From Hormiphora californensis (Eukaryota > Animalia > Ctenophora): 64,000 bases of DNA. The notes under the pieces were generated by a model. It was not told the DNA's origin and did no database searches. It was given only the letters and a program-made list of their open reading frames with translations. The stretch spans positions 1,612,001-1,676,000 of the forward strand of contig CM035360.1 in assembly GCA_020137815.1 (NCBI GenBank), read 5' to 3'. Position numbers and translations under genes: made by a program. Shown here in pieces: positions 1,710 to 58,906 of the stretch (position 1 is its first letter; every line of letters starts with the position of its first letter).

Positions 1710-4700
1710 CTGTAGTAGCACATCTTGTACATCAGACTGTTATGCATGGCTTTTGAAGCGTCCTTATCCACCTTTGTATTCACCCGTACTGCTGTAGTAG
1801 TCGCTCTCTTTAATGTGTTCACCTGTAGAGAGATGATATTGATAAATTTAATTTAATGATTTATAATAATAATTTAGTTTATTTAGATAAATTCGGAATA
1901 AATTCAAGTGCTAATCAGTATTACTTAGCTTGTAAATTAAGGGATGCTGGTGACAGTTTTAACAAAACTACTCGTTTGGATTTGTAATCATTATATGTAT
2001 TACAAACATTCAGGAATCAGGGAGTGCTACTTAATTACTGCTAATTACCAACTAATTACTGCTAATTACCAACTAATTACTGCTAATTACCTTCAGGAGT
2101 ACTTCCCCCGATTCGAATCATCCAGAGGAACTTGTTAATATCATCGGAGCTGTACCCTGACATACCACCAAATATCACCAACACATAGTCCACATCCAGC
2201 TCCTGATCAAGAGGGTGGGGGGGGGGGGGTTGGTTGGTCATCCTATATTGGTGGGGGCCAGGGTTGGGTAACGGGGCCAGGGTTGGATAACAGGGCCAGG
2301 GTTGGGTAATGGGGCCAGGGTTGGGTAATGGGGCCAGGGTTGGGTAACGGGGCCAGGGTTGGGTAACGGGGCCAGGGTTGGATAACAGGGCCAGGGTTGG
2401 GTAATGGGGCCAGGGTTGGGTAACGGGGCCAGGGGTGGGTAACGGGGCCAGGGTTGGGTAACGGGGCCAGGGTGGGGTAACGGGGCCAGGGTTGGGTAAC
2501 GGGGCCAAGGTTGGGTAACGGGGCCAGGGTTGGGTAACGGGGCCAGGGTTGGGTAACGTAACGGGGGGTTGGTTGGTCAAGAGATGCATGGAAGAGGGGG
2601 GGGGGTTTGGGTTGGTGGTCAAGAGATGCATGGAAGAGGGTGAGGGGATATCATTACTTTTAGTGCCAGTGGGGGGAGAGAGAAACGAGTTCAGTATCTC
2701 AGATCGTATTGACAATTCACAACACCGCAAATTCCAGTTATGTAGGTACGCAGCATTTACTCCCGTTTACTAATACATATATCGATCCGAGAGGTGTATT
2801 AATTTTGCCAACCCTGTTATATCATTGGTTCGTGACCCCGCCCTGTTATTGACGTCACACGGTACATGACCAACGAGCCAATCACGTGAGCACTATTGTT
2901 GTACTTTAATCAATCTTGAATTAAAGTCGGATTTCACATGTACGGTCATTTTGGGGTGACAACTTCAAAAAATCCGACTTTACTAAGGAACCTTGGAACT
3001 TTCGAGCAATCCACGCTCTCTCTTACCCTTAGATAAAGTATCAATCTCACCTGCTCTCTCTTACTCTTAGTTAAAGTAACAATCTCACCTACTCTCCCTT
3101 AGTTAAAGTAACAATCTCACCTTCATAATAGTATAGCTGTGATCCTCCGGACTTGCCATTGCTTGTCCAACTCGGGAAATGTGAGTGTTATTCCAGGTAT
3201 TGTTGTCCACTATAATGGTCCTGAAAACACACATGAGTGTGTTAATTAATTAATTAATTAATAGTTAATTAATAGTTAATAACTAGGGTACTTACTACTT
3301 GTGTAAATAACGAATTGTGAGAAGAATTACTTTCATCTTGAATAATTTGGTAAAGTAAGCAATGTATGTTAAATTGTACACAACAAATTCGCTTATTTTG
3401 CCAAAGTAGTGTTTTGAAATTGTAGCCGTTTGTAACCAATAAATTCTGGCTCATCAAAAGTATATCATTTACCACCCTCCCTGCTTTGTAGATCGGGCAG
3501 TATAAACGTAAGTCGTAGCGAATCAGCTAGCCTTGGTGGGTGGCTTTATATATGCGGAGTTTGATTTGAGTATACATACTCAAATCAAACTCGGCATATA
3601 AAGCCACCCACCAAGTTATTTGTACATGTAGGAATCAAATAACTGGTTAAGAATTTTATGACTTCGGAAGTGGTAAACAGTTATCTAGGTTATGATTGAT
3701 CATACTATTAAGTACTTCCCTGAGGTTAAGAATTGTATGACTTCGGAAGGAATCCCTACTTACATACCAACAACCTCCATACCAACATCCCCCATACCAC
3801 ATAGGTATGGAGGGTGTTGGTATGGAAGCGTTTTGTGAGGTTCAGTGACCTCCATACCAACTCATAGATTATATTTAGAGAGTTGGTATGGAGGGTATTA
3901 AAGTCTCTATAACGCTTCCATACCAACTCGATGCAGCCATACCAACTTGTGAAAATCCTTGATATCTGGGTGTATGGTACTGCCAATTAGAGCTGTCCCG
4001 ATGTACGATTCAATTACACGATTCATATCACGATACGGTATTCAAGTGGCTTCGCTTTGGGTGGGGTGTGCCTTTCACGTACTGAGTGTGTTTAGTTTAA
4101 TGCAATACAAACATAAGATATTACAGGAACTATGTCTTGACTTTACTACAACGGACGAAGCGATAATCCTCCATACATCCACCCATACATCCACCCACTG
4201 GCCACTATAGCCATTCTGATCTCCCCGACTGTCCTCGAGTCATCAGAAATGTGCTCCTCAACCTCTCTCTTCTAATCTTCCTGATTCCCACTTCTTCCAA
4301 AATCCCTCCACGTCGGAGACACTTCAAGATCCGGCACGATACCCAGGACAGCGATGCCTCTCGCATCTGACTCTGTGTTCGGTACCAATAAGGATTAAGG
4401 GTACCTGCACTGGGTATCGTGTATGTCGGTTGGAGTAAGACTGAGTTACTGGGGTCTCGCCTATATTTTCCATCAAGGCTAGCATGAAAATACTATCAGA
4501 ATTATAGACCAATTATAAACCTCCCCTTGCAGCTTGCTCCATCTTTCCTGGTCTTGGTGTCCCTGTAATAGGTGTCTATACCGTGTTACCCAGCCACTGA
4601 AAACTATGGTGCTCCTATAATAGTGGCCTACATTTACTGTTGGTGACATGGACACATGTGCAAGATCGAAGTCAATTTGTGGAAATATACAGGGTGTCCC

Positions 4701-6854
4701 ACTGTCTTTGCGTGACCTGCGATTACTGGTCATGACCGGGTTCCGTCAAATTAATCAAAACTTATCGAAAAATTGGTCAAAATGGTTCTAACAAAAACCA
4801 GTGTTCTAGAGAATTGTCTGGCGAACATCTTAGTTGCAAGATTGACTTTCCAAGTCTTACCAATCGTCAGATATATCGTCGTAAAGTCAAAATTACGTGT
4901 TCATGAAATCCGACCGGGGTTCACGTTTTGAAAAATTCACAAATGCAAAGTTGCTCGGATCACATTGCATTCCTCATAAGAGTTGTGGGAAATTGTCTGG
5001 CGGTCATTTTGGTACCCGGTTTTTTGTCCTAGCTCAATGTTTAGAGTGTCTTATGACTGTCTAAAGACGAAATTCAACCAGCATTTTTGAGGGGATCACG
5101 TGTCATCAACAAATGGGTAAAATGATTTGAAATTTACAAGAGCTTCATTGGAATCGTCTAAGGTTCATTTTGATACCATGGTCTTTTCCATAGCTCTACG
5201 TTTAAGTTGCGTTATGACTGTAGGAACATGAAGATTTTTCTATGCTGAGCCTTAGTTGGTATCGGCTCACAACCCCTAATTAGGTGGCTCGGTGTCGTGT
5301 GTAATCCCATGATAATCAGCACATATCGTCTCAATTTCATCTAGACACTTGACAGGGTTGTTATGACGATTTGGCAAGGCCCCTGTTAATGTGTAGGATA
5401 CGCAAGTGGTCTATCTCAACCCTATCATGCACTAAGATGTTATTCAAGCAGCTATGAGCTTCATAACAGGGCAAAATGCAATGCGATACCTGAGAGCACT
5501 TTTGGGAAAATCCCAGTTCTGACAGTCATAAGACACTCTAAACATTGAGCTAGGATAAAAACCCGGGTACCAAAATGACCGCCAGACAATTTCCTACAAC
5601 TCTTATGAGGAATGCAATGTGATCCGAGCAACTTTGCATTTGTGAATTTTTCAAAACGTGAACCCCGGTCGGATTTCATGAACACGTAATTTTGACTTTA
5701 CGACGATATATCTGACGATTGGTAAGACTTGGAAAGTCAATCTTGCAACTAAGATGTTCGCCAGACAATTCTCTAGAACACTGGTTTTTGTTAGAACCAT
5801 TTTAGTAGTATAGTGTGGACAGTTGGGACCCCTTTTTCGCTCGAATATGTCACCTCCAAATATGGGCATGTCACGTGACACACGTGATGTCATATGACAT
5901 CACGTGACATCACATGACGTCATATGATGTCACGTGATTATGACGTCATGGTGTGACCTTTGTGACGTCACTAGCGCTGACAAGGGATCAGCGGGGTTTG
6001 AACTCGCTACCTTTGTAACAAAAGCCAATCTCTTAGACCATGCGGCCACCGTGCGGCATTAGATCATCACATTTGAGACCTTTTTAAATGCTATAACTTC
6101 ACAATAAGTCCACAGTGATTCTTGCTCCGTTCCTACCCTGTTATTCACTGTTATCTGGTGTTTCTCGTGTGTTCCAAGTATTACAAGAACACATAGAAAC
6201 AGCGAAAGAACACCCAAGAATAAAAATTTGTGGGTTCTCCGATTGCGCTGTAAACTCTATTAATCGAATTAAACATTGAATTTGTAAATAAAAACTTCAA
6301 GAATATCTGTACACATCAAAACGTATGCAAACAATGGTCTCAACCACCCATTTCGAAGAATGTCTTGATTCGCGTGCTATTTCAACTAAATCATCTCTTT
6401 CGATTTCATTCTTTACTTTCATTATATCGTCTTGATCTGCTATGACTTGTGCTGTTTCGAACACCATTGTATTGTTAGATGGATGGAAAAACTTTAATTC
6501 ATCCGTTTCAGTGTTCCTTAATATGTAACCAAAAGCTACATTGACTTTTACAGGTTTTTTGTAATATTTCAGTACTCCACCGAGTTTCCCGGGAATGCTA
6601 TCATAAGGGGAGATTGGAAAATGATACATATCCTTGAGAATCCCTTTCTTGACACTGTGCTTGATGGTTTTCCAGTTTTTGCGATAAAGCGGCTTTACTG
6701 AATCGCCTACGTTCTTCAGAAAATCATCCATGATGGAAATGAAACGGTTCTAAATCTCACTTGTATTTATAGCTAGTGAGAAACTACCTGTAACTACCGC
6801 ATAATTTTAAGTTCTCGCGATATGCTATTAGCAGTCAAGATTATAGTATACCAA

Positions 6855-6888
<34 letters not shown>

Positions 6889-9800
6889 CTCTCTCCCTCA
6901 ATTTCTTTTGGAGACCCCTTATTTATTTAGTGGATGATCCCTTGTTTATACAGATAGAATCTACACTCGAGTTCACTGTATATCTATTTGAGTGCCACCT
7001 TTAGTCCCATGTTCCGCTGATACCTTTCACTCTCTCTCTATCTCTATGTCTCTCTCTCTTATAGTCCACTTTTTTCTAGACAATATGTTATTATTGACAC
7101 ATTCCCGCAAACTTACACTACATCACGTGAACTAGTTTATTCCTAATTTGGCTAGCAAATATCAACAGGTGTCCTCATGGTACCGGAGTCCAGTGCTTTA
7201 GTTACCTTTCTTCATACGTGTGCTCAGTGAGTAACTGGAACAGCTCACACTGCAGCTGTACAGTTGATGTTGCTTGAAAGTCTGAATTCCGGGTGCTATG
7301 ACGCTATGTGCCATATTTCTGTTGCTGTGCTCTATACTGAATAAATGTACAGATACCAGTTTATACTTTGCAGAGCAGAGCTCAGGCTTGACTTTGGAAC
7401 TTATCTTATTTGTCCTTTATTCTTACTGGTATTGACATCTAACCGTGATGCTTACATGACTTTTCACATACATTGCTTTAGATAGTTACGATTGCGGACC
7501 TAAAGCTTCTTCATGTCATAGTATAGAGAGTCTTATAATCGACAACAGCTGAGGATGGCGAGACGGCTCTATCTCCTTTTATTTCTGGGAGTTTTCTTTG
7601 TTCAACCTCAACTATCTCATTTCTTAAATTTAAAGCGAAAGGTGAGATTATGTGACTAATAAATAAACTAATTGTATTGCTATGTAGGATATATTCAAGT
7701 TTATTGTAAGATAAATTTCACTTAAAGTGAGTTTTCTTCTTCAGGGCGATGATGAAGATGATGAAAGGCCTGGACCTTCTTCCTCTCACCACCATGTAAG
7801 CAAGTAGTCTTCAATAAAATTATCCCTATTCAATTTTACCATCAAAGATTCAGTCAAAACAAGATCTACCTTGACTGTTTGTGGTGTACCTCGATCTATA
7901 AGATATAGTAGTTAATGTGTTTTTTTTTCTTTCTTCAGTCCAGCGGCTGTGGAAATGCTGAACCATCAAATGTCAAATCTGTAAGTCCTAGTTCAATATT
8001 TTTGTAAGTTGATTCACGTCCAAACGACGAGCTTCATTCAAACAAGAACCAACTTTCATTTCAGGGGAAACATCGGGCTGTGACCTGCCCACTGTGTGAT
8101 AATACTATCCGGGCGTCACAGCTGGAAAATCACAAAGGAGGGCGCAAGTGCGTTAAGCAGTGTGAAATTTGCACTCGAAGAGTTCCCGGCAAAGACTATA
8201 AGGCTCACAGAGACGAACATCTCATACAGATTCAGCACAGTTTCTCTCACTCTCAACCCAGTCCGACCTCTCCGTTCCAAGCCGTTCAAGTAGATCCAGA
8301 GCTTGAATTGATTTACAAAGAGCACCCTGTTATCCAAACGAGCGTTAAAATAGGCAGGGTAATGGATGTATACAATGTTCAAGTAGATCACCTGAACACT
8401 GGAGAGCTATTAAATTGCTTCAAAAAAGTCTACAGGCATCAAAGAAACGCTTTTAAGCTCCAAATTTCGCTGGGAGTCATCCTGAAACATCAAAGAACTG
8501 GTGAACTTGCCTATTATCGTCCTTCCCAAAATAACCAGCTACTTTTGGACTCTCCAACACTGATAAAAAATTCTGAGGATAAGAGGGCTTTTATTAATTT
8601 GTTAGAAGGAATTGACCTTGAAAAATCCATTAGGCGCCCCTCTACTGAATGGTCTGCAGTTAAAGTGACCAATGTTAGCTTCTACGTGTTTCGACTGAAA
8701 GGTACTGCTATCGGAGGTGGTGTTGAGCTACCAGACCACTTGCTACGGAACAAAGGACTGATTTCTTTAGTGACTTCTAGGAAGACTGGAAAGCCCTATA
8801 GCGATCAGAAATGCTTCTTCCGGTGTCTCGCTCTGCACCAAGGTTCAGACCCTCAGTCGCTTGAAAAGAAGACCAATCAGCTCGTGAAAGAATATTGTAA
8901 CAAGGCATCTATAAAGACAAAGCAGTTTAACGGAGTCTCTCTAGATCAACTTGAGGACGTTTCACGACTTTTTGGAGTAGGAATTATTGTCTATGAGCAA
9001 GATGAGGATAGATCCACGTCTACAGTGTGGCGCTCCATCACCGAAGATAATGCCATGCACGTGAACCTGTTCCAAACTCATTTCAGCTTTGTCCAAGATC
9101 TTGAGAAGTTTTCATCTTCATACAGATGTCTACAATGCGACAAGTTTTTCGACCACCATGGTCACTATAAGAGGCACACGAAAACCTGTGACATGAATGT
9201 GAGAGAAAAGTACGTGGGCGGTACATTTAGTGTGAAACCCACAGTCTTCGATGAGCTAGAGGACTTTGGAGTGGACATACCATCGGAACTACGCCCTTAT
9301 CCTTATCGAGCTGTGTTTGATATTGAGTGCATGCTGACAAAGGAGGTAGACATTGCTGAAACAGATAGGACAAGCTACGTTAACCGTCATCAGTTGGTCT
9401 CCATCTCCGTGAGTTCTAATGTGCCGGAGTTTCAAACCCCAAGATGCTTCGTCCTCAACACACCTGATGGGCAAAAGACCTTAGTCTCAGAGTTCCTGGA
9501 GTACCTTAGGAAAATCAGTGATGCTGCAGCCTGTAGAGTAGGGGAACTGTACCAGGAGTACAACATTGCTGAGGTTGAGGACGATAAAATACAGTCACGA
9601 TGGGAAAATCACGTATCCCAGCTGCCTGTACTTGCATTCAACGGGGCCAAATACGACCTAAATGTTCTACGAGAGTTTCTGTTCCCAATCCTGGCAAAAG
9701 AAGATTCAGTCAGATTCATGATCAAGAAGGGCAGCAGTTACATGGCAATTTGCACAGATCAACTAAAATTCCTGGATATGATCAACTACGTGGCTCCTGG

Positions 9801-12800
9801 TTATTCGCTCGAAAAATTTACCAAAGCTTATGGTGCTAAGGATCGAAAAAGCTTCTTTCCGTATGAATACTTGGACTGTTTCGACAAATTGAAGGTAAAG
9901 AAGTTCCCGAAGTACCAGGATTTCTTCTCGTCGCTAAAGGGAAAAGTGTCACTTGAGCCTAATGTTGGGGAGAGCCTCTCGGATTTAGAGGTCCAGTACA
10001 TCGGTAGACAGCCCAGTAAAGATGATCCGATTTCTTTGAAGGAGATTAGTGAGTTGGGTCAGTTCCGGTATCACCAGCTGAAAGACATGTTTGAAAGGAA
10101 CAAGTGGTGTGTTCGGGACTACCTTATCTACTATAACAATTTGGATACTACTTCGTTTTTGGAGGCCATCGAGAACTTGGTTCAGTACTACAACGCTAGG
10201 GGAGTGGATGTGTTCAAGGATGCTTTATCAGGTAAATTGCTAACGGATATTATCTCGCATAGTAAATAATCAAATATTTTACTAAAATTACTAATAATCC
10301 GTTATAGTTCCTGGGATCGCAGAACGGATTGCCTTCAAGGGGCTGAATAATCGGGATGAGACCTTCCACCTTTTCAACGGAAAAAATAAGGACCTCGTAC
10401 ATCTATTTCTATCAAACAATGTTGGCGGTCCAGCTATCATTTTTGATCGATACCAGGAAGCAGGTATTTGAGATACAGTCAGAACCCGATTTAGTGACCC
10501 CCGATTTAGTGACACCCCGATTTAGTGACATGATAAATTTCCCCCGATATTGCAAATTAACGGTATTTGACCCCGATTTAGTGGCCACCCCGATTTAGTG
10601 ACCAAAACCCTTTCCCCCGAGGATGTCACTAAATCGGGGTCCGACTGTACTCCCAACATTCTACTCTAACTCTCCTAACTAGATTTATACTAACTTCTCC
10701 AAACTCAGATGTAACCAAAATACGCCATGATGATAACGGAAAACTCTGCAAGAAGGTGCTTGGTTTGGATGCCAACGCCCTTTATCTGGGTAAGATCCTC
10801 GGTCAATTTTTTTTGGGTGCTATCAAGCGCCGTAAATTCAATCACTTCTTGAAACGAGTGTTTGCTTTCTCGATTCAAAACTGAAGATAGTATTGTCTGA
10901 TAAATTTCAGCCAGTTACAGCTCAGGATTTAAGCTGCATGCTCGGCTCAAAACCGTAAGAGCCACTGAATAAACACACATGTGTTAGTAACAGACGTAAA
11001 TATTTTTCCAACAGAATGCATGTCGAGGGAAATGCCATGTGGGATGTTCCTAAGACGACGAGCACCAGACTTCATTCTAGAGTACCCTAGCTACACCTCA
11101 AAAGTGGCTATTGAATGGTTAAGCTGGGTAGAAGAAGACCAGGGTATAGAGATCCAACATGCCAAAAACAGCGGTGAGGTGAGGATTGGACCAAGAAAAA
11201 TTCCAGTTGATGGCTTTCACAGGTAATCACATCAACACGCATCTGATCATGTGATTTGATTTCTATATAGCTACCTTTTGCACGCACATTAAATAAAGAG
11301 CTTTGGAATCAGAATAATTATCACAATAATACCGTTAATCAGGATAAAAGTGATTATCTTAGACTAATAATCCATTTCAGAGAGTCCAAAACAGTGTACC
11401 AATTCCACGGTTGCTGGTTTCATGGATGTAGAGAGTGCTTCCCAGACAATCGTGATGTAGAGAAGTCTGGTAGAAAATCCCATGATTTCAACTTCAACAG
11501 AACTCAGAAGGTCACTACCGAACTGGAGAGTCTCGGCTATACAGTAAGTTTTGTACACATGTTACTGTAAGGACAAAGACCGTAGCATCTAATTCAATGT
11601 TCAATCCTATTTTCAGCTGGTTGAAATGTGGGAGTGTGACTGGAAGGAGAGAAGGAAATCCGTTCAGCTGTCAACAAAGCATCTTTACCCCTTCGAGGCG
11701 TCATATCGTCTGACGGAAAAGCAGATTTTGGCTGCTATTCAGAAAGGAGAGATGTTTGGTGCAGCTGAAGTTGACATCAACGTACCCGATAATTTAAAGG
11801 ATAGGTATGAGAAATTCAGCCCCCTAGTAATATCGATCCATTAGACAATCTAATTAAACTTGTTTTAAAATGGTCCAATAGCTAGAATATTTCAGGTTCA
11901 GTGAGATGACTCCAATATTCAAAAATGTGGTGATTACAGAGGATGACATAGGCGAATATATGAGAGATTACATCCGGGAGACTGGGGAGAAGTTCAAGGA
12001 TCGGCGCAACCTAATAGGTTCAATGTTCGCAGAAAAAATTCTCTTGGTCACTCCTCTTCTCAAGTGGTACTTGGACAACGGTTTAGTCGTCACTAAGCTT
12101 CACCAGTTTGTTCAATTCCGACCTGTACGCTGTTTCAAGTCATTTGCAGACAACGTCTCCAATGATCGACGTGCAGGTAAGATATTCAGCACATTTTCTC
12201 ATCTTTATTCTACTTTTGAAGATTATATAAACTTATTTTTAATGAACCTACGCTTTAGGGGATGTAGATCCGAGCAAAGCCATCATTGCGGAGACGTCAA
12301 AGTTAATTGGCAACAGCGTATACGGCCACAGCATCATGCGCAAAGACCGTCATACATCCGTTAAACTCGTTGATCTAGAGAAAGCTAGCAAGTTGGTGAA
12401 TGATCCTCTAATGGTCAGCCTGGAAGAGATGGAAGAGGAGACATTCGAGGTACAATTTTGATGAATAATTGTGACTATATACACAATTATGTATTATTTA
12501 CTTGTTATGGAATAATATTCCACTATCCCCAAGGTTGTTAGTAAAAAGAGAAGAGTGACGTATGATCTACCAGTACATCTCGGCTTCTTTGTCTATTCTC
12601 TGGCAAAGCTGAAAATGCTGAAATTTTATTATGATGTACTCGATCGCTTCATTGATAGAAGTAATTTTGCCCTTCTAGAGATGGATACTGGTGAGAATTA
12701 TATTGGAACTCACCGCCGTAGACGGCTCTCTGCAGCTGAGAACTATCTACGATGGGAAAAATAGACGTGTGGTGATATAAAAAGTTATAATAACTTCTGT

Positions 12801-15800
12801 TTTTCTAGCTTTATTTATTAGAATTTCAAGTGATATAACATTTCAGATAGTTTGTACCTCGCTTTGGCAGGCGACTCTCTGGATGATATTGTGAAACCCG
12901 AGCTCAAAGGAGAGTGGACGGAGATCAAAAAGGAATGGTTTCCGAGGCCTCACAACAAAGCTTACGACAAGAGAACACCTGGTAAGTTCTCTCATTTCAC
13001 TCTTTTCTTTCTATAATAAGCAGATTTTAGACAATTCACAATCATTTATCGAAAATTAAAATTCCTCAGGGTTATTTAAAGTCGAGTATGAAGGGGAGGC
13101 ATTTATCGGGCTCAACGCAAAGTCTTATTTTTGCAAAGGGGACCAGATAAAATATAGTTCAAAAGGAGTGTCTCATACAAATAATCTCTCGTTTGAAGAC
13201 TACAGATCCGTCTTATTGAAACAACCAGTGAAAGATCAGCTCAATCGAGGATTTAGGATGAAAAAGGGAACAATGCACACATACTCTGTCACAAAATCGG
13301 GTCTTAACCACATTTATGTGAAGAGAAAGGTGCTGGAAGATGGGCTTAGGACGACCTATCTAGACATTTGAGAGCTACATCATTATATTTTAGCATGAAC
13401 GACGACTGATTATACAGCTATCGGGATTTATTTAGATATATATTTTCTAATTTATTTTCGAGAAAGTCATAAAACAACTGATTTTATTTTAAAAGAAATA
13501 TACAAATTTAATTATCATATTCTAGACTTGAAATTAGCGATAGCGTTCTCCCAATAATTTGGAATATATTATAAAAGTCTTTGGAGTGATTTAAAAGTAA
13601 CAGTTTGATTTCTTCTAGGCTTTTGCAATCCACCACTCTGATAAGTTTTCTGCCTTTTGCATTTAGACGCTTTTTCTGGGATACGACTAGAGGTACAGCT
13701 CCATATTTTAAGCCAGTAAAAAGATTTTTAATTGCTTTAAGAAGTTTATTGCTACGTGCAATAGATTTAAAACTTTTCAAATCAATCAGTTGTTGTAGTT
13801 CCAAGTAGTTCCGTATACTTTTAGCATTGATTATTGTATCCGAAAACTCATTAAATTTGGTATCATTAAAGTTGGTCCTGAATTCATCGAGTTGTTTTTC
13901 AAACAAATGAATTCTTTCAAGATGTTGCTTTGATTCATTGAGTTTCGATTTGTATAGTCTCTCGTATTTTCGAGCTTGACTATCTCGTTTCTGGTATAGC
14001 GTCTTAAAGTCAATATCAGTCAATGGATCAAATTTTTTCTCGGATTCTTCCTTTTCATCATCAGTTTCATTCACTTCCTCCTTATCTAGAGACGTCTCGA
14101 TTTCCTCATTGTCATCAACTGAGTCATCACCAACTGGCCCCCACTTTTCATGATCATATTTTTCATGTTGAAGAAGATGATAAACTGTTTCGAATTTCAG
14201 GTCACAAACATTGCAGGAATACATTTTTGCGGAAATAAACTTAATAAAAATAGTTCTCCTTTTATACTCGTCACTGTTCCTCGATCAATTTTACTGTTCG
14301 TCTTTGTTCCTACAAGTCGGACAATTCTCTTCCTCTTCTGGGAACACCTTTTCTATGATATCTTCCACTGTTTCTAGATTTTCTTGCAAAAGTTCACGAA
14401 TCACGATCAAAGATTCGTTATCCTTTATCGCATTTATTAGAAGTTCCTCTTCTGGTGTCAGCTCAATCTCTGAAAAATCTGCATTAATTAGATCATTTTT
14501 GAGACCAAAACACTTCAATAGGCTCGAGTATGTCTTTTCATCTTCACTTTCTGGTGAGTCAATCTCATCATCAGACAATTCAGATAATTCCTCAGGCTCA
14601 GAATCCTGGTCAGACTCTGAATCCTCATTCCGCTTTTTATCATCCAAGCGTAGAGCTTTCAGAAACGATCTTGAATTAGACATGATTGGAAATGATAATC
14701 ATGGAAAACATCCCCCTTTTATAGTGTTCCCGGGTGTTCTCTCTATGTTCCGACGTGTTTTTTTAAAAAGCTCTTTTGTTCCTCGGTGTTCCTCGGTGTT
14801 CCTTTCAGGAACCCTTTGATTCCTTGCTGTTCTTTCGATTACATGTTTATTCCTAGGTGTTTCTAACCGTTCTAACGTGTTCTTATGATGTTCCTGTGTG
14901 TTCCCGTGATGCCTGGAACAAGCGAGAAACACCAGATAACGGTGAATAACAGAGTAGGAACACTAGAAATAGATTGCATCACCAAGGAACTGCTAGGAAC
15001 ACCCATAGAGCATACGGAGAATAGACTAGGAACACTTGGAACGATTTTAAGATTCCTATAATTAACAAGGAATAGCTAGGAATGGCTAGGAACGGCTAAA
15101 ACACAGCCAATGTCGCTTGCCAGCTCTAAGCAGTCATTTTAGGTGGTACTGTACAATCTATGTACTGTAGGAATAGCTAGAATATCAATTATCAGGGGAC
15201 TTATTGTGAAGTTATAGCATTTAAAAAGGTCTCAAATGTGATGATCTAATGCCGCACGGTGGCCGCATGGTCTAAGAGATTGGCTTTTGTTACAAAGGTA
15301 GCGAGTTCAAACCCCGCTGATCCCTTGTCAGCGCTAGTGACGTCACAAAGGTCACACCATGACGTCATAATCACGTGACATCATATGACGTCATGTGATG
15401 TCACGTGATGTCATATGACATCACGTGTGTCACGTGACATGCCCATATTTGGAGGTGACATATTCGAGCGAAAAAGGGGTCCCAACTGTCCACACTATAC
15501 TACTCATTTTGACCAATTTTTCGATGAGTTTTGGTTAGTTTAATGGAGCCCGGTCATGACCCAAAATCTCAGGTCACGCAAAGACAGTGGGACACCCTGT
15601 ATTACCACCATACCATCACGAGTACCAACACCCTCATACTGCACTCAACTCAACCTTATAAGGTCTAAACCCTAAACCCCTCGGCCCTCCTAAACCTCCA
15701 TCTAGACCACATAAACATCACCCCTCAAATCTGAACAGAAATAAATCACGTACATACTCATACACCGTCTTCGTACTAACAACTCTTTCACCCTGAATCC

Positions 15801-17360
15801 TCACTCAGTTTGGTTTGTATGGCTGGTTTGAGGTTTCAGGTTTGCTTACTTGCTTTTTATTATGCAAGTATGTAGTTATGTACATACTATATCTTGGTGA
15901 TTTACTTCTGTTCAGATTTGATGGGTGATGTTTAGGATGGGTTTAGGTGGTTTAGATGGAGGTTTCGGAGGGGTTTGGGGTTTAGACCCTAAAGGGTTGA
16001 GTGTGGCATGAGGGTGTTGGTACTACCAACTTCTCTTGTGATAGAGGTAGTGACAAGATGCAATACGTATTACAACACGTATTCCACTAGGCTGAACCGC
16101 CGATAGAAAAACCTGGCATAAAAGGTTACTTGCACAGTGCACCAGCTGTATCGGTAAGAGCTACATCGGAGCCACATTCCTAGGCCACTGTAATAGGAAT
16201 TGTTGGCCGTTGGTTGACGGTAAGACACAGACCACAGTGATATCTTACGTTTGTATTGCATTAAACTAAACACACACAGTACGTGAAAGGCACACCCCAC
16301 CCAAAGCTAAGCCACTTGAATTCCGTATCGTGATATATGAATCGTGTAATTGAATCGTACATCGGGACAGCTCTAATTGGCAGTACCATACACCCAGATA
16401 TCAAGGATTTTCACAAGTTGGTATGGCTGCATCGAGTTGGTATGGAAGCGTTATAGAGACTTTAATACCCTCCATACCAACTCTCTAAATATAATCTATG
16501 AGTTGGTATGGAGGTCACTGAACCTCACAAAACGCTTCCATACCAACACCCTCCATACCTATGTGGTATGGGGGATGTTGGTATGGAGGTTGTTGGTATG
16601 TAAGTGTGGAACCCTTCGGAAGGGGTAAACAGTTATCTAAGTTATGATTGATCATACTATTAATTTTATGACTTCGGAAGGGGTAAACAGTTATCTAGGT
16701 TATGATTGATCATACTATTAATTACTTCCCTAAGGCGAGACTAATCATATCGGGTTATAAAAGTAATTTGTATTAACTATCAATCGTCTGACAAAGTACG
16801 ATTGTATAGAGGGAAAGATAGAGGGAGATAGAGAAAGATAATTTGAAGGATCACTGCGCTGGCACCTTTCCAGCCAACTAATTTCTGTTAGTTTTTGGCA
16901 TAATAAATAGGGTGGGCGGACTCTAGTGCTAACGGACTCTATATCTAAACCCAAGGAGGACTCTATATCTAACCCTAACCTTTACACTAACCCCTCACCT
17001 CGAACCCAAATAACAGCCCTAACACTTCTAAACGAGTATAGAGGCACAGCAAACTCTCGTTTCCGGCCTAACGGCCGAAATCTCGAGTTCGCTTTTCGTG
17101 ATTTTAGCACTAGAGTCCGCTCACCAATAAATAGATAGGACCTGTAAAGAACTGTTTGACCAATGAAGTAAAGCCATTTCGACAGGTTACAGATTTGTAC
17201 TAAATTGTAATGTGGCTGAATCACCAAATTTAAACCAGAATCTTTGACATCTCGATTTAAAATATCTGCATCAATCATGCAGCATGACGGCCCACTTCAT
17301 TGATGATTTTGATAAATCTGGAAAAAGTTTTTTTTGGTGTGGGTTTCTGCTGGAAAGAAA

Positions 17361-22809: not shown

Positions 22810-25800
22810 GTTGCGAAAAATTTCGCCAGTCCTTGGCATCTATAACGTAAAAAGGTTCTAGAAAAAAGATTGAGGAAATCTTACCATACATGTTACTACT
22901 TTATTGGACACGGTGCTCCTGAAGGACGGTCAACCTCGACCAGAGCCCCTAGCCAAACCACCGGTTGTGTGACCTAGAGGGGACCTCTGGGAACCGTGGA
23001 GGCTGGAGCACCGGTTAGAAAAATATATGGCTGGGGCCTTAGCCGGAAAATTGATAGAACGATAGCTATCGTTTTTTTCACTTGAACAATACGACCTTTT
23101 CAAAAAATATTCCTTGATCAGCAAGATATAGTGTACCCCCACCTATTTTTTGACGTAGAATCGAATGCCGTTGAAGTCAAATCTCTAAAATGTTGGAAAA
23201 ATGGTGAAAATAGCGTTTTTAGGTGTTTTTTGGTGAAAAAAGCGTTCAAACTGGTACTAGATGATGAGATACAGTCCCAAAAGTATGACAAATCGCTTTT
23301 TTGGGACCTTTTCGCCCTAGAAGCAGATTTTTATGAAAATCTGGTACAGCGCCTATTCTCCGTATACTTTCAAAGAAGGTGAATATTGGTCTAATTTAGC
23401 CAATTTTGAAGAAAAGTCATCCAAAACAGTACTAGATGATGAGATAGGGTCCCAAAAATATGTCTAAGCAATTTTTTGGGTCTTTTTCGCCCTAGAAATA
23501 AATTTGCATGGCGGTCGGATGATATGTTTCCTCTCGGTAGGCCTCTGAAGTAGGTGGAAATAGCCAAAATATAACGATTGCGGCAAATGAATGTGAATAA
23601 ACGTGTACCAAACCCACTTTAGCATCATGTATGACCTATCTCTGGGCTACTGGACTATGCAAGAGCCATACATGATGCTTAAATGGGTTTGGTACACGTT
23701 TATTCACATTCATTTGCCGCAATCGCTATATTTTGACTATTTCCACCTACTTCACAGGCCTACCGAGAGGAAACATATCATCCGACCGCCATGCAAATTT
23801 GTTTTTAGGACGAAAAAGGCCCAAAAAATCGATTAGTTTTATTTTTGGGACACTATCTCATCATCTAGTGCTGTTTTGGATGACTTTTCTTCAAAATTGG
23901 CTAAATTAGAGCAATATTCACCTTCTTTGAAAGTATACGGAGAATAGGCGCTGTACCAGATTTTCATAAAAATCTGCTTCTAGGGCCAAAAGGTCCCAAA
24001 AAAGCGATTTGTCATACTTTTGGGACTGTATCTCATCATCTAGTACCAGTTTGAACGCTTTTTTCACAAAAAAACACCTAAAAACGCGATTTTCACCATT
24101 TTTCCAACATTTTAGAGATTTGACTTCAACGGCATTCGATTCTACGTCAAAAAATAGGTGGGGGTACACTATATCTTGCTGATCAAGGAATTATTTTTGA
24201 AAAGGTCGTATTGTTCAAGTGAAAAAAACGATAGCTATCGTTCTATCAATTTTCCGGCTAAGGCCCCAGCCATATATTTTTCTAACCGGTGCTCCACGGT
24301 TCCCAGAGGTCCCCTCTAGGTCACACAACCGGTGGTTTGGCTAGGGGCTCTGGTCGAGGTTGACCGTCCTTCAGGAGCACCGTGTGGACCTAATATAAGA
24401 GCTGTACTCCACCCCTATAATTGATTTTCTCTCGTATTCCCGTTCCTTTCTCACTTTTAAAATTCAAGGTGGTCGACGACTTCCGTGGAAGTTCATTTTT
24501 TCTTTTAATGCATTTAATGGATGATGGATGATGCAGCATTCTATTAAAGCAAATGATAAATTGATTTCTCCTGCGGGAATGTTATATTTCAATTAAATTG
24601 ATAGATCCCCTCCTTCTGATATATACATGTTTAGCTCTATAGAGTTCTGGGGAACCATTTCAAAATGATCAATATATTGATCATACTTTTGAAAGGGTAG
24701 GGTATTATCTCTACTTTGATGTATTGTGGGTGGCCGGGTTAAATAGCTAGTTCTGTGGTATACTACCACCTGTTTAATGATAAGGCACCGCTAGCTAGGA
24801 GCATTTAGACTCGACACAAGTTGCATACCATGATAGGGGCATTTAGACTAGAGATAAATATACAGCTCGACGCAAGTTGCATACCACCCTAGTACCATGA
24901 TATATGGTTAAATATCTAGTTCTTATCTGTGGTTTACCATGATAAGGTATCGCCAGCTAGAGGCATTTAGACATCGCCAGCTAGGGGGATTTAGACTAGC
25001 GTTAAATAAAGCTCGACATGAGTTGCATACCACCGCTTGTACCATGATAGAAACCACCCTAGGGTTGAGGGTTAGCTCGTCTCTGGCTGTTGTTCATTCT
25101 GGCCTGTGCTGCTGGCTCCTGATTGGCTCTCACATCAACCAATCAGAGCTGCCGCCCCGCCTGCAGTATTTAAATAGCCGGATTTTCAGTCTACGAACCA
25201 CTTCAACTTCATCATCAAGTCATGCTTCCATCGTATGCCTGTTTGAGCTCTTAGCTTGGTTAGGGCTTTTGTCAACAAGCTATTGGGGAGTGGAGACGGT
25301 CCCTAGCCGATACTTTTTCAAGCTGAATCTAAAGAAATCAATGCCACAGATCACCTAACATGTATTTAACCCTGTCACGGCCGTGCTTGGAGCGCAGTAG
25401 CCGGAGACGAGCTAACCTTCAACCCCACTGTGACTAAATCACCCCTATAACGCTCGCGTTGAGGGATAATTACCTTACTTTGTCGAAACTTTATTGCTCT
25501 GGACTTCAGAGTTTGTCGCATTCTTGGCGTTTATTGTTTCCTGTTTTCCCCGTTTTCTCAGTTCAAACACCACAGTTCGGAGTCTGATCTGGCTAGATTA
25601 CATTGTGTTCAGGAACCGATCGGACCAAGTAAACAACCAATCAGAACTCGTTATTTAGGTCACGTGACTGGTTATCAGCCAATCAGGGACCAGTATTTCC
25701 TGATTCGGTCGGTTCCTGTTACATTGTAATCAATAAACTAACCCAGTTACAGTTGTAGCATGTTGTTATCTCCCTTGGCAACGATGGACTGGGAATATCT

Positions 25801-27360
25801 TAGGAAGAATGGGACACTCAATGACACTGTTAACAATGAAACAGCCCAGCAGCAATTCGCTACGGACAGCCTCTATATATATGTGAGTTTTCTCGTTTTC
25901 TAATCACAAGAAAATCACCCTCATTTTCGAACTTTTAGGTTAGATGAGATTTTCCAACCCATTTCCCCCGTTGCAGTTCAGTACGTCCTTTAGTATACCC
26001 TACAACGGGAGCTACGACCGGCTCATGGCGGGGTGTCTCCTCTTCTGCATGGTATACGGGATGATAACCAACACCCTCACCACCACCTTCCTAGCCAAGG
26101 AGCTCCGGAGAATGATCAATAACTCCAGGAGATCCCACACCCAGGGGTTCTTCTACTGTTTCTACCTCATCACATCGATTGTAGACCTAGTGATTAGTAC
26201 AACTGCCTTCCCCGTGGCACTCTCCCTGGCGTTCAATAGGGAACCTGTCCTGTTCGCTAACACTGCGTTTTGCACCTTCTGGGCATTACTCTGGGAGGCT
26301 CTTCCCTTCCTCTCGGTGTTTCTAATCGCCCTTGTAGCAGTGGGCCGTGCCATGACCCTCTTATGGCCATTAGCGGCTGTATCCCGAATAAAACGAGTGT
26401 TCCTCGGTGTGATGTGTTTCTATACTGTGTTCCTGGTCGTCAGTAAGGTGGTTCCGATCTGTTTAAAGTGGGACAAGGGCGGCTGGCACCGTGGTAATCC
26501 ATATCACAAGGACTATCTAGCTCACGGGCACTATAACAAGGATTCGGTGTACTGTTTCGTGTACCCACATGACGTTTACTGGAAGATCAACTCGGTCCAA
26601 TCAGCGGTCCAGTTTGGCCTTCCCGCCATTATTATCCCGGTAGCCAGTGTCACGTGTATTACAGTCATTCTCCGACTGAAGAACACTTGCAAGGCCCTTC
26701 AAATCAAACGGAAAAGTTTCAAGAAGACCTCCACACTGACCGTCCTGATTTTCTGTACAGCCTACATGCTCTGCAACATCCCGGTGTTCATAAATTACAT
26801 CATGTATTCTCGGGTGTGGTTATCTAACATTGCATACGCTAAACTATTCAATACTCCCTACCTGTATTGGTACAGTTGGAGCTTGACTTATGTTGTTAGC
26901 ACATGTGTTAACTCGTGTGTTAACCCTACTATTCTAGTTTCAAGGCTTCCTAAGTTGCGGCAATGGCTGTGGAATCAGTTACTGAAGCAGCCCATTGAGA
27001 TTATTAGTAAGACTTTCTCAAGAACTGTATAGCATGTCTCGAACACCTTATCAGCATTATCTTGAACTCACACCCTAGATCCTATGTGTGGGGGGTCATT
27101 GGCGAGGATAGGAGTGAGGTCAGACCGGACAAAAATATTTGCGTTTATTTCGAAAGTTTATAACCACACGACTCACGAGGCTATCTTTTTATTTAAATTT
27201 TATCGAACTGTATTTATCCAACTACGAAAAAGAAAGAATCAAATTTGTAGGGGTTGGCACGGTTCATATAAATATTTCATTTATTTGTTGTTTGTTTCCT
27301 ATTTCATTCAGCTGCGCTGCTCATTGTAAAAAATAGTTTTCATTTTTTAACGAAAACTAT

Positions 27361-27422
<62 letters not shown>

Positions 27423-30400
27423 TGAATATTAACTCACGATGCAGTAAGCAACGTAGATACGATGAGAGAACCGGCCGGTAATCATCAGAGTCAGTACGTG
27501 TAGGGGAATCAGGTTGATGAGGAACACGTATCCACCCCAGCTAGAAACCTGGAGGAAGTAGAATATTAACAATGGTAATATTGCCCGAGCTAGAACAATT
27601 TGTTGAGTACTACTCGACAAAGAACAATATCAATAGTGTCATCAGGAAAGGGGGACTGAACAAGAAGGGCCAGGGCAGCAAGGAATATTCAGTACAAAAA
27701 CACATGTTTTTAGCCCCCTAGCTCCACAGGATTTAAAGACATGTGTGTCTTCCAATTCACCACGTAACATGCTGCAAGACCTCCAAAACGGGGGGGGAGT
27801 TTGTTACTTTAACTAAGAGAACAAAGACTAACAATGTCCGCCGCATCTAAGTGCCAACTGCTACGTACCATGTAAAAGTAGGCGAGAGCACATGAGAGAC
27901 TCCAGCAGATAGAACCAGTTTTAGAAGCCTTGATCCATGTGTAGTAGGTTAGCAGCATACAGAAGATGGCGATACCTGCCAGGTAGTGAATTGTTCTGAA
28001 TCTTCTGAATCTTCTACTACAGTTTAGTAGAGTCGATAACTACATCGACCTCTCCCAATTGTTCCAGTTTTTGTCACATCTGTTTGGAGCCTCGACACGA
28101 CCTCTAAACAGGTGTTACTTTTTCACAAACTGTTTTCATCTTGGTGTAATCAGCAGTTGAAATTTTGCTGATCATAACAAAAACCTGACTAAATTTTTTC
28201 AACTTGGGGTAAAACCATGGGTGTCAAAAGTTAGCTCTAGGTCCCCTGAGTAACCATCCGGAGACTCTAAGAGATATTTCAAGCCGTTCTCCCGTAATCA
28301 TTAATCCCGGTGGAGAAAAAAATACAATGCGGACGTACGTGAGCGCTGGCAGGCTGTTTACATGTTATTGTATGTCTCTCACTCTCTCTGGAAAAACCGC
28401 ACGTGCCGTTGCGCCGCGCGAGATAACTCTTTCTCAAGGGGGAGAAAAGAGAGAGACGCACATTAACGTTATACATTAAAGTTGAGGTTGTAGGCAATTG
28501 CACGTACGTCCATACTCAAATATGTGCTCTACCGGGATTAATGATTACAGGAGAACGGCTTGAAATATCTCTTGGAGTCTCCGGATGGTTCTATCTATCT
28601 ACGGAGTGCCTGGGCTTGCCAACGGCAAGCCCACATGGGACTATCGCAAAGCGATATCGCCGGCACTAGGAGAATAGCCCCCCTCCCCTCCCCCACCATC
28701 AGGAACTGCCCACAGGACAGGTTCGCATTATAGGTGGCTTCGGGTTCGGGAGGCTAAACTCCTTCGAGAGTCGCAGAATCTTGATTCTTCTTCCCTATTA
28801 GTCTTGGATCTTTGGCTCTGTCTCCCTGCGACAGGTGGGGATGAGTTATACTAATCTTTCTCTTGGTTCTTGAGTTTATTTGCTTTCTCGATTAGCTTGA
28901 TGGCTACCGTGGTGTGATATATTATCGTTTTGCCTAGATCTTTGTACGAAGTTTTGCCGCTTAGTCTCATTCTCTCCGTTTCCAGGATTTCACATTCACA
29001 GATTAGGTGTTTCGCATTTTCTTCTGTTTTAGAGCATAGACTACATATGTCTGTATTCGATTTTCCAATCTTCTTGAGGTAGTAGTTGAACGGCCCTATA
29101 TTTGTGATGAGATGTAGTATGGTTCTATACTTTTTCCTTTGGTTTGCGTACAGTGTCATCTTTTTTGATAGTGAGTTCCATGTTGATTCATTCGTTACTA
29201 GGGTTCTTGTGTGTTTCCCTCCATTTATTAGAAATTGGTTCATGGTTTTTGTTTTGGCTATTTTCGTCGTAGAATTTTTAATATAGCTGTGTGGGATTGG
29301 TATTTGTCTGGTTTCACTGATTGGTTTGCTGCATCCTTCTATGAAACCCGATAGCTGATATAACAGTCGCTTGAAGAATTTGCGCGCACATGATAACCGC
29401 CAGCTGGGAGATTTAACACCCTCCTCGCAGTTTGACAGACCAGTTCCCTATTTCACGCGTTTCTCTTCATTTGAATAACATGCGTGTAAAATTCTAAGTA
29501 TTGAAAATGTGTGTAAACACACAATTCTGTCAACAAAAGAAAGGGGAAACATGTCTGCAACACGTTTCAATGTTATCTCTCTCATAAGGAGTGAAAAGAA
29601 TCACATTCCATTCATTTCTCTCTCTCATTGTCTCTTTTACTGTTCACTACCTCTGACAGTGTGTATTGCCCCTAATCTTTCTCTCTCTTTCTCAAACATG
29701 TTAGGAACAGTAGACACTAAGTCTACACACATTTTCAGGGTATCTGTTGACTATTTACCAGCAGTTCTAGTGTGTTTCACCTTGTGTTGTGTCTCTTATT
29801 TGTGTGTAATTACTATCGGGTTTCATAAAATATGAACGTTTGTTAGCCTATCGCGTTATAGGTTTAAATCACCTCCCCCTCACCCTCGGCTGGCGCCTCG
29901 GGATCGGCGTCGGGATTTAAACCAGTTTAATCGCCCTGCCGGGCGATTAAACTCCAGTTGGCTGTCCCCAGCTCGCGCTGGGAACAGCCAACTTCATAAC
30001 GCGCCAGTCTACAAACGTTCATACTTCATTTGGCAAGTTGGTCAGCTATCTCATTACCTTGGATGCCGATATGTGCTTTGACCCATTTTATTTTCACCGT
30101 ATTGTTTTGTGCTAGTTGGTTGAGTTCCGCGTTGCATTCCTTAATTGTTAAGGAGTCGGAGGTCAGTTTACTTAGTGCACTTATGCTGGCGGCTGAATCT
30201 GATCTGATGTGGATGTGGTGATTTCGTGTCCCATTGTTGTTTAGTTCCTCTGCTGCTCTTTTAATTGCTGTTACTTCGGCTTGGAAGACTGTGCTATAAT
30301 TTGGTAATCTTTCTGAGATATCGATTTCTTGTGTAAGCACTGTGGATTTTGAGTGTGCTCCTAGCCCCGTTTGGTTAGCTTCGTTTTTCGATCCATCCGT

Positions 30401-40013: not shown

Positions 40014-50827
<10,814 letters not shown>

Positions 50828-57100: not shown

Positions 57101-58906
57101 GGGGAACACCAAGGGAAAATTTGTAAATAGTGAATCAACTGGGAAATACTAACAAAAAAGATGGGACTGTACGACAACAGCTACCCCAAAAAGATTTGGG
57201 AAATCCAACACGGCCCCATCAGTCTATCACTAAACAAAAAAAATGCAAACACCAACTTGAATGTGAAATCCCGGTAGCAAAAGAAAGAGACTAGCGGCAA
57301 AAATTCATACAAGACCTAGGCAAAAACGATAAAAAAACCACCCCCACGGTCCTCAACATCGAGAAAACAAATATACTAAAAAACCAAGAAAAGACTAGAA
57401 GAACACATCCCCCGCCTGTCGCAGTGTAAAAGAGTCAAAGATCCAAGACTCAGGACAGAAGAACCAAGAGACTGGATCCAAGACCCAGGACAGAAGAACC
57501 AAGAGTCTGGTTCTCTCTGGAGTCTAGCCTCCCGAACCCGAAGCCACCTATAATGGAACCTGTCCTGTGGTCAGTTCCTGATGGTGGGGGAGGGGAGGGG
57601 GGCTATTCTCCTAGTGCCGGCGAAATCGCTTTGCGATAGTCCCTTGGGGGCTTGCCGTTGGCAAGCCCAGGCACTCCGTAGATAGATAGAGATAGATCCC
57701 CGACACGGTTATTTGTGAGGTATGTTGTCTCCAAATCATCCCCGACACGGTTATTTGTGAGGTATGTTGTCTCCAAATCATCCCCGACACGGTTATTTGT
57801 GAGGTATGTTGTCTCCAAATCATCCCCGACACGGTTATTTGTGAGGTATGTTGTCTCCAAATCATCCCAGACACGGTTATTTGTGAGGTATGTTGTCTCC
57901 AAATCATCCCCGACACGGTTATTTGTGAGGTATGATAAGCAGACCAATTTGAATTCGATGATCTCTCAGTCCCTTGGCCCCATGGCATGGCGGGCCCCAT
58001 GCATGATGCAAATAATCTCTCTGTAGCTGTACAATTTAGACCCCAAATATCCTACTGTTTGCTCACCCTCCCTCTCAGATTCCACAACGACTGGACAGAT
58101 TTGAAGTTTGTCACTGATTTCAAAGTGATAGATCACTTTGATTACAAAACGAATAAAGTTTATCACGCCGCACTCGATTTTGGTGACGTTACCATCGCCT
58201 CCATCAACCTCGAAACACTCCAGGTACAATTCCAGGCAGGTACAACTGCAGGTACAGCAGGGGTGATCTTACATGGGACAGGTACAACTACAACAACAGG
58301 CGACATGGGGGTGATCGGAATTGTTCCTTGGAGCTTATTGCCTAAACAGACATTCCATGATATTCAGTTTGCTGTACTAGTACAATTGTATACAAACTCA
58401 ACCATTTTACATGATCGTATCAACTTTCTGATCCTCCCTCTCTCCACAGGAGCGACTGTTAACGGCCCGGTTCAGTACTGAACAGTTAGTTCCCGGTCAA
58501 GTGTACCATCTTATACACGCCATAGTGACCTCTACACACCTCAAATTCCTAGGTTTGTGGCTCACACCGCATCTTATTTCTGTGAGGGACGAGGTTTGTT
58601 GTACAACCAAGTTGTTGGAGGCTTGCTCGACCCCATATCACCGAGCCCCGGTTTAAACAAAGCAAGCAGGAGCTTCCGTGTTTTCTAGCAGGCCGCATAT
58701 GATTTTGATAAGTCTATTATCCACGCCATAGTAGTAGTTGTAGTTTGAAATGTCCTCTAGAGGACAGAGGCCTCTGTGGTTTGAAATGTTTCAATTCCAA
58801 TACTCCGTGCAGGTGATTTACAGACGGTGTTCCTGGGAGAGATTCCTGACGATGTCTATGTGACACAATACACCCAACTTCACTCACTACGAGATATTGT
58901 CTGCAG
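54171..58906 (+). CDS. Unidentified multi-exon gene (partial model)
   Basis: Phase-compatible GT-AG exons 54171-54314, 54442-54555, 54736-54938, 58079-58223, 58450-about 58593 and a further exon near 58813-58906; no family recognised, start and stop not found. Confidence 0.5.
54904..57934. repeat. 42-bp minisatellite, about 35 units, split by a LINE fragment
   Basis: Unit GTCTCCAAATCATCCCCGACACGGTTATTTGTGAG|GTATGTT; blocks 54904-56136 and 57696-57934. Confidence 0.95.
56137..57695 (+). mobile_element. Second, shorter 5'-truncated copy of the RNase H-bearing LINE
   Basis: [20 protein letters not shown]... nearly identical to the 28591-31610 copy; same 3' UTR and (TAGA)n tail; middle part degraded. 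Confidence 0.9.

Follow-up and report, generated by a model that had tools for sequence, protein, structure and literature searches.

Adenoviruses, bidnaviruses, and linear plasmids all go back to Polintons, and the shedding of integrase and capsid by a replicon is an open question. An element that bears on it lies in a 64,000-nucleotide stretch of the ctenophore Hormiphora californensis (GenBank assembly GCA_020137815.1, contig CM035360.1, positions 1,612,001 to 1,676,000 of the forward strand), hereafter called the window, whose coordinates are used throughout. An initial annotation made from the sequence had described this Polinton-like element as a replicon with an intact protein-primed polymerase but no integrase, capsid, ATPase, or maturation protease. 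We found an intact, recently inserted element of 9701 bp (5804 to 15504) with four genes, which retains the replication module alone. Our best reading, which we consider moderately probable, is that it represents a replication-competent, integrase-borrowing (semi-autonomous) Polinton subfamily of ctenophores. The anatomy of the element, its missing genes, the intron positions it shares with relatives, and the right-arm layout it shares with a second organism are observed here, and splicing, replication, and the helper are inferred.

The terminal inverted repeats (TIRs) are exactly 308 bp long with 0 mismatches, form AGTAGT...ACTACT ends, and are flanked by an exact 6-bp target site duplication (TSD), CATTTT. 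The gaps between termini and genes measured, in order, 185, 823, 136, 66, and 513 bp. The TIRs, their ends, the exact 6-bp TSD, and the two largest gaps had been described in the initial annotation, as had the set of one large and three small genes; the large gene was found here to have 14 predicted exons. A host foldback repeat, whose arms at 4779-5061 and 5521-5803 are 99% complementary, holds the element in one of its arms. When the element and one CATTTT were removed in silico, the flanks matched the opposite foldback arm, which shows the unbroken empty site, across the junction, confirming the insertion point. The perfect TIRs, the 6-bp TSD, and the location in an arm of a young host repeat that is 99% like its partner show that the insertion is recent, as first proposed, and of the integrase type.

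We next looked for the genes that a Polinton would be expected to carry. Of 190 confirmed metagenome loci carrying related polymerases, the 80 best were collected for comparison. ORFs (open reading frames) were scanned in 16 of them (81 of 225 ORFs), and an rve integrase was present in 10 of the 16, several of which also had an A32 ATPase, a double jelly-roll capsid protein, or adenain. Profiles of the rve integrase, A32 ATPase, major capsid protein (MCP), adenain, and penton, made from related Polinton contigs, were run on 5601 stop-to-stop segments from the window and 17 loci. None of the five proteins was detected inside the element (best E 2.1-3.4), and the integrase and penton profiles gave no match there up to E 10. 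The same profiles did detect adenain (E 9e-24), a 57-amino acid (aa) MCP fragment (1e-6), and penton (1e-6) in other loci. A spliced integrase hidden in the gaps, which the initial annotation had named among the findings that would refute it, was likewise not seen: an intron-aware search of the element with 11 reference proteins gave scores of 39-72 versus 35-66 for shuffles. Two integrase references scored slightly above their four shuffles (68 versus 61 and 72 versus 56), far below real matches, given that true polymerase homologues score 1751-3597 with the spliced aligner. Similarly, tblastn found no match over the whole 64 kb. Measured against autonomous Polintons, the element thus has the protein-primed family B polymerase, the long TIRs with AGT-type termini, and the 6-bp TSD, but it lacks the rve integrase and the 13-25 kb length, and its polymerase gene, in place of an intronless one, has 13 predicted introns. 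It also lacks the MCP, penton, A32 ATPase, and adenain of polintoviruses and adintoviruses, and such genes are present in two related loci, L006 and L031.

The large gene supports the earlier claim of an intact protein-primed polymerase. Its predicted 1402-aa frame contains no stops, all 13 introns are GT-AG, and the exo, A, B, and C motifs, with EMDTDS among them, are intact. The predicted domain order, assigned after 10.1101/2024.03.18.585575, is a leader, zinc fingers, a terminal protein (TP) domain, a vOTU domain, an exonuclease, and a palm with a Vsr insert. A vOTU-type pair was assigned by motif (CFFRC at 310, giving Cys310, and HFS at 399, giving His399), and a Vsr-type motif, FHGCWFHGC, lies within residues 915-995. 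The polymerase of the metagenomic locus L014, which is 40% identical over residues 150-1402, matches DNA_pol_B_2 (PF03175, E 2e-13) and Vsr (PF03852, E 3e-4), and the Vsr-homologous stretch of L014 and of protein P0030 matches PF03852. The ctenophore polymerase proteins had no polymerase match in Pfam, and the Bolinopsis RefSeq protein P0037 had no sequence match among solved structures. The closest protein matches were Pleurobrachia bachei models (polymerase, 92-93%; ORF-Z, 93%; TP-like protein, 91%), and the next polymerase matches came from Bolinopsis microptera (54%) and Mnemiopsis leidyi (48%); taken by themselves, these matches point to a ctenophore of the Pleurobrachia type as the likely host.

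The introns of the polymerase are 73-245 bp long, with 33% GC versus 44% GC in the exons. The core introns 4-13 were placed by spliced alignment with three references, P0037, the Mnemiopsis protein P0061, and the distant metagenomic P0032, all of which gave the same ten introns to the base, P0032 adding one further call. Each of the ten junctions falls within a block that aligns without gaps to P0037 and P0061. Introns 1-3 are predicted from splice signals and frame alone. One RNA run yielded six short diverged pieces, none spanning a splice junction, and these are not evidence either way.

Comparison of intron positions across 37 aligned loci revealed that 13, which stand for roughly nine separate elements once overlaps between contigs are allowed for, have at least one intron position and phase in common with the window polymerase. 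Eight of the ten core positions (782, 834, 861, 930, 1141, 1205, 1257, and 1302) are common to relatives that are 36-53% identical, while 985 and 1047 occur, among the aligned loci, in the window polymerase only. None of the 20 loci outside the intron-sharing group had a window intron position; the intron calls made in them fell mostly in a variable insertion or the N terminus and were not counted as introns. All ten core introns follow residue 781 (chance 5e-4 if uniform, a post hoc figure). One splits motif C and another follows motif A, and relatives carry further introns inside motifs A and B. The window introns show no similarity to one another. In a midpoint-rooted FastTree phylogeny of 46 polymerases, from which 7 of 39 attempted loci were dropped owing to frameshifts, stops, or a short model, the intron-bearing polymerases and the named ctenophore proteins formed one clade with a local support of 1.0. 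By these comparisons of sequence, the introns are old and common to the ctenophore-associated clade. Separately, more distant polymerases apparently carry their own introns, one or two each: those of L039, L043, L045, and L046 at about residue 1157 (the L046 call derives from a tblastn break) and those of L009 and L073 at about 938. One of these introns is near the one that the ctenophore clade has at motif B.

The gene content of other clade members bears on what the element is. Locus L006 starts with an AGTAGT end, followed by the polymerase, adenain, and the end of an MCP gene. L031 and L032 carry penton together with the same stand-alone TP-like gene as the window element, upstream of the polymerase and on the opposite strand; in L031, penton and another ORF lie exactly between the TP-like gene and the polymerase, and further ORFs lie beyond the TP-like gene. 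L006 and L031 both belong to the subclade that is sister to that of the window element, whose own subclade is represented by contigs too short to show gene content. Because clade members carry adenain and MCP or penton, the element is, as judged from sequence, a reduced member of the intron-bearing Polinton lineage and not a separate lineage. The absence of integrase and virion genes described in the initial annotation is supported, but the nesting of the element with virion-coding relatives speaks against a separate plasmid-like lineage. In addition, its introns point to host nuclear transcription, unlike that of cytoplasmic linear plasmids; as spliceosomal introns need the nucleus, a cytoplasmic lifestyle of the pGKL type is ruled out. 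The intron-bearing loci, all of them partial, showed no integrase. The terminal AGTAGT is also found in the integrase-bearing loci L017, L023, and L029.

Further scans for the lineage returned little. Of three scans of viral contigs, only the second returned a locus, the weak L081, and none turned up a member of the intron-bearing lineage. The first metagenome scan was empty, and a scan of prokaryote genomes gave one 725-bp contig (L082). The latter, from a Cytophagales metagenome-assembled genome, carries a TP-like gene and is probably animal DNA in the bin. As a side observation, L041 (11096 bp) and L042 (8887 bp) hold a distinct pPolB2 element, apparently free of introns and with Cys-rich ORFs that are unrelated, in which the profile search found no integrase or virion gene; the flanks of L041 are apparently long direct, not inverted, repeats. 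These two loci are possibly a second reduced lineage.

The missing genes could also be explained by an internal deletion, a case that the initial annotation had set against its own reading. Here, a full-length intron-bearing Polinton would have lost the integrase and virion genes of its left arm at or shortly before insertion, and the polymerase would be intact owing to the short time elapsed. The adenain and MCP genes beside the polymerase of L006 and the penton gene in the left arm of L031 fit such a loss, and the junction between the polymerase and ORF-Z could natively belong to a longer element. Of the 14 listed runs, 12 contained at least part of the stretch; they come from organism A, organism B, and a single marine metagenome. 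Many further contigs with TIR-related sequence occur in the same runs. Run X6, a second sample of organism A, had the polymerase end in two forms, one identical to the window and one at ~92%. Organism B yielded pieces of the polymerase, TP-like gene, ORF-Z, and ORF-A at ~91-95%, and run X7 yielded polymerase contigs at ~91-95%. In run X11, from organism B, a 685-nt contig matching 13048-13686 leads from the 3' end of the polymerase into ORF-Z, and its neighbour extends over 13689-14467, from ORF-Z to ORF-A, both ~92% identical. Thus, the compact order of the right arm predates ~8% divergence, in contrast to the mismatch-free TIRs of the window copy, which argues against a fresh single-copy deletion and makes a recent deletion in the element less likely. 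A deletion would moreover have to occur at least twice, on both sides of the TP-like gene, while sparing all remaining genes. Organism B has the start of the TP-like gene with 118 bp upstream (6600-6849) and read-contig depth in the bin upstream of the polymerase, the gap between the left TIR and the TP-like gene in part mirrors, in degenerate form, the subterminal region on the right and is no gene scar, and neither the profile nor the spliced search of the element found gene remnants. We also found that third codon positions account for most of the listed coding differences: 8 of 8 for exon 4, 7 of 8 for the TP-like gene, and 16 of 23 for exon 14, among subsets of 40 of 734 and 40 of 271 rows. 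On this evidence, we regard an internal deletion as unlikely.

Several points nevertheless weigh against a semi-autonomous subfamily. The likely source sample has its polymerase on single long contigs without differences or variants, at a depth of 31-41 that is similar to that of the TIR-junction contigs, which fits one or a few identical copies and would suit a one-off deletion as well. The left arm, from the TIR through the TP-like gene to the polymerase, is unbridged by the listed contigs of organism B, as microsatellites cut the contigs, and as the extra genes of L031 sit in this same interval, any full-length sisters may keep theirs in it too. Part of the third-position bias may go back to autonomous ancestors. 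Finally, in these contig data, neither a second insertion with its own TSD nor a helper was seen. The one-off deletion is thus opposed by the right arm of organism B, with the left arm leaving it room.

Under the semi-autonomous reading, host RNA polymerase II would transcribe the integrated copy, and the spliceosome would remove the 13 introns. The vOTU domain of the resulting polyprotein, whose Cys310 and His399 are present, may cut off the TP domain. Either this freed domain or the separate 144-aa TP-like protein would then serve as primer when an excised linear copy is replicated from its AGTAGT ends. The rve integrase of a full-length Polinton in the same host would recognize the conserved ends and insert the copy, producing the 6-bp duplication, and the retained polymerase would let the element amplify independently of a helper replicase.

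Alternatively, the genome could be split between this 9.7-kb replication unit and a polymerase-less partner with matching ends, integrase, and capsid, the two being mutually dependent like the segments of bidnaviruses, which have matching termini (PMC8502044). In the same runs, the TIR, ORF-A, ORF-Z, and TP-like bins gathered many more diverged contigs than the polymerase bins, so there may be relatives that have these parts but lack a close polymerase; priming of a second molecule could fall to a stand-alone TP. However, summed contig depth is no copy number, and we take the excess of diverged contigs only as a sign of related elements, the polymerases of which may simply be too diverged to align at 85%. 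No partner was seen, and L006 carries polymerase and virion genes on one molecule. A split genome therefore seems improbable to us. We give as little weight to a scheme of cooperating ctenophore Polinton units, in which the element would be the replication segment for polymerase-less partners and its polymerase a leader-targeted membrane precursor that the vOTU domain releases.

Integration without an rve integrase, through the Vsr-type nuclease inside the polymerase or through host repair, would account for the FHGCWFHGC motif in an element that encodes no integrase. It is very improbable, because the same nuclease insert occurs in the integrase-bearing loci L014 and L071 and because AGTAGT ends together with an exact TSD of 6 bp are the mark of rve integrases. 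Least credible is a domesticated host gene, with the host-like introns and the signal-peptide-like leader conserved across ctenophore relatives marking a polymerase kept for the animal's own use, given the perfect TIRs and TSD inside one arm of a young repeat and relatives that are many divergent paralogues beside viral genes.

The semi-autonomous reading assigns a role to the stand-alone TP-like gene, which is a paralogue of the polymerase TP domain (27% identity over 133 aa, E 2e-11) with 38 homologues. Its alignment-based structural model had a pLDDT of 90.7 (score of the predicted local distance difference test) and superseded a poor single-sequence fold (pLDDT 51). The best viral match of the model was an adintovirus protein (E 1e-3), and it weakly matched five Y-family polymerase little-finger domains (Z 4.3-4.9). 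A fold link between terminal proteins and these domains is described in 10.1101/2024.03.18.585575, which also places the TP linking residue in the loop before the last strand. Both TP copies have a Ser in this predicted loop (RPSTEW and RHSSKW). The other two small genes are less telling. Two of the ORF-Z homologues are Pleurobrachia bachei models, and ORF-Z scored under 0.8 in the Atlas search; its candidacy as a homologue of small Polinton pX-type or core proteins was dropped after a nonsignificant profile comparison (probability 0.8%, E 0.067). ORF-A had no Pfam hit and no usable Atlas hit, and no homologue of it was retrieved. At a guess, ORF-Z and ORF-A are accessory DNA-binding or chaperone proteins. 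One TP-like and one ORF-Z protein come from contigs of equal length, 2731; this was rejected as a sign of a polymerase-less unit, with about one such match expected by chance on a rough estimate.

The predicted first exon of the polymerase encodes a leader with a basic start, a 12-residue hydrophobic run, a V/I-x-P motif, and then PGPS. Similar leaders occur in the Mnemiopsis model P0060 and at two loci, L002 and L007; those of the two loci are joined in frame to the polymerase via phase-0 GT-AG introns. No leader was found upstream of the polymerase in L006, L031/L032, or P0037, and L005 was too short to tell. Local alignment of the leaders gave a score of 29 that was reached in 39 of 2000 shuffles and covered the PGPS stretch only; alignment alone is thus no proof of homology, and the case is made by recurrence and frame. 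The leader may be a membrane anchor that the vOTU protease cuts off.

Several side observations concern the termini and the setting of the element. CACGTG-type palindrome arrays lie in the TIR, and like motifs occur near the left end of L006 (390-450). A tRNA-like stretch in the TIR was called by ARAGORN at the relaxed threshold only, which gave 43 calls in 36 sequences, and 8 of 3000 shuffles contained an A plus B box, which makes the stretch no more than a lead; there was no call at the default threshold and no tRNA match in Rfam. Rfam microRNA matches in the TIR were far under gathering scores and reflect the palindromes. Similar tRNA-like or Pol III promoter-like stretches occur at L031:2840-2918, L078:8480-8552, and L080:5443-5514, and two of the recurring stretches in Polinton relatives were called as tRNA genes at the default threshold; they are possibly small Pol III RNAs. 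The foldback repeat (about 4687-15602) is nested within outer inverted repeats (3741-4124 and 16237-16622, 95-98% complementary), and these nested repeats around the element (3741-16622) are likely stacked non-autonomous DNA transposons. Features elsewhere in the window are listed at the end of the table.

Table. Features of the Polinton-like element and of its surroundings, in window coordinates.
Feature	Position	Strand	Remarks
Left TSD	5798..5803		CATTTT
Left TIR	5804..6111		AGTAGT start; contains 10-bp palindromic CACGTG-type repeats at ~5875-5957
tRNA-like stretch inside TIR	5984..6066	-	Pol III A/B-box-like motifs; mirror copy 15242-15324 (+); weak lead
Degenerate subterminal inverted repeat	6129..6213		83.5% like 14877-14961
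Stand-alone TP-like gene	6297..6731	-	144 aa; paralogue of polymerase N-terminal TP domain; Ser in predicted linking loop
Protein-primed DNA polymerase gene	7555..13371	+	Vsr-type pPolB2; 14 predicted exons; 1402 aa; 13/13 introns GT-AG; 0 internal stops
Predicted first exon	7555..7641	+	Hydrophobic signal-peptide-like leader; in frame with polymerase
Polymerase exons 1-7 (predicted)	7555-7641, 7745-7795, 7939-7980, 8065-10231, 10308-10463, 10709-10789, 11015-11222	+	
Polymerase exons 8-14 (predicted)	11381-11543, 11617-11804, 11896-12176, 12259-12449, 12534-12690, 12847-12981, 13070-13371	+	
Host miniature inverted-repeat transposable element in intron 5	10476..10647		172 bp; TA duplication; very high read-contig depth
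ORF-Z	13508..14224	-	238 aa; has a C2H2 finger, an acidic tract, and a helical C-terminal domain that is conserved; 28 homologues
ORF-A	14291..14683	-	130 aa; acidic; CxxC at end; DNA-level conservation in organism B
Right TIR	15197..15504		ACTACT end; partner of left TIR
Right TSD	15505..15510		CATTTT; exact copy of left TSD
19-bp tandem array	2178-2633		
630-bp foldback element	23004-24296		
Likely membrane receptor ORF	25944-27029	+	Labelled by eye from translation
Reverse transcriptase-like ORF	30029-31621	-	Labelled by eye from translation
SH3-like exon	40265-40834	+	Labelled by eye from translation
Uncharacterised 369-aa frame	42480-43586	+	By eye
42-bp tandem array	54917-58000		

In its TIRs, TSD, AGT ends, and Vsr-type insert in a protein-primed polymerase, the element resembles the marine Polintons/Mavericks of Jeong et al. 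(10.1101/2023.08.22.554363), which have TIRs of 100-1500 bp, TSDs of 5-8 bp, AGT ends, and lengths of 13-25 kb. In contrast to these, which carry integrase, ATPase, protease, MCP, and penton, the window element is 9.7 kb long, has none of these genes, and has an intron-split polymerase. It likewise shares TIRs, a 6-bp TSD, and pPolB (the protein-primed family B polymerase) with the intact vertebrate Mavericks of PMC8097293. That source reports 7-8 core genes and, in agreement with Kapitonov and Jurka 2006, no introns in the genes of intact Mavericks, whereas the window polymerase has 13 predicted introns. The element thus runs counter to the working rule that intact Polinton genes are intronless. 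Since the introns are old, ORF-based virus finders would miss the intron-bearing lineage, and Pfam is blind to its polymerase. Introns inside Polinton-like elements are also found in the dinoflagellate eupolintoviral elements of PMC12166617; there, the introners are mostly young, host-acquired transposon insertions, whereas the window introns are dissimilar and hold positions common to proteins that are 36-53% identical.

Loss of the virion module alone was already known from nine Repbase Polintons with a concerted loss of MCP, protease, and ATPase (PMC4028283). No integrase loss is reported in the available text of that source, and Polintons are defined by polymerase and integrase; the window element differs in being without integrase too. 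Its polymerase is predicted to follow the TP, active vOTU, exonuclease, and palm order of the pPolBs in 10.1101/2024.03.18.585575, in the accessible text of which no hydrophobic leader is mentioned for such polymerases. The same source offers the Stylophora polinton as a precedent for a stand-alone TP gene; in that coral element, as in adenovirids, the TP has been separated from the polymerase, whereas in the window element it is duplicated, with fused and stand-alone copies coexisting. The duplicated TP and the conserved leader raise two testable questions, on protein priming and on polymerase localization. Our literature search, with Repbase, subscription journals, and supplements outside its scope, found no description of a ctenophore Polinton, of conserved introns in an animal pPolB, or of an integrase-less, polymerase-bearing Polinton. 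Like the window element, pGKL-type plasmids and bidnaviruses are Polinton-derived pPolB replicons without a double jelly-roll module (10.1101/2024.03.18.585575); unlike it, they do not integrate with 6-bp TSDs. Compared with these systems, the window element likely represents a halfway state seldom described for Polintons, in which the element has kept its own polymerase and borrows the machinery for insertion.

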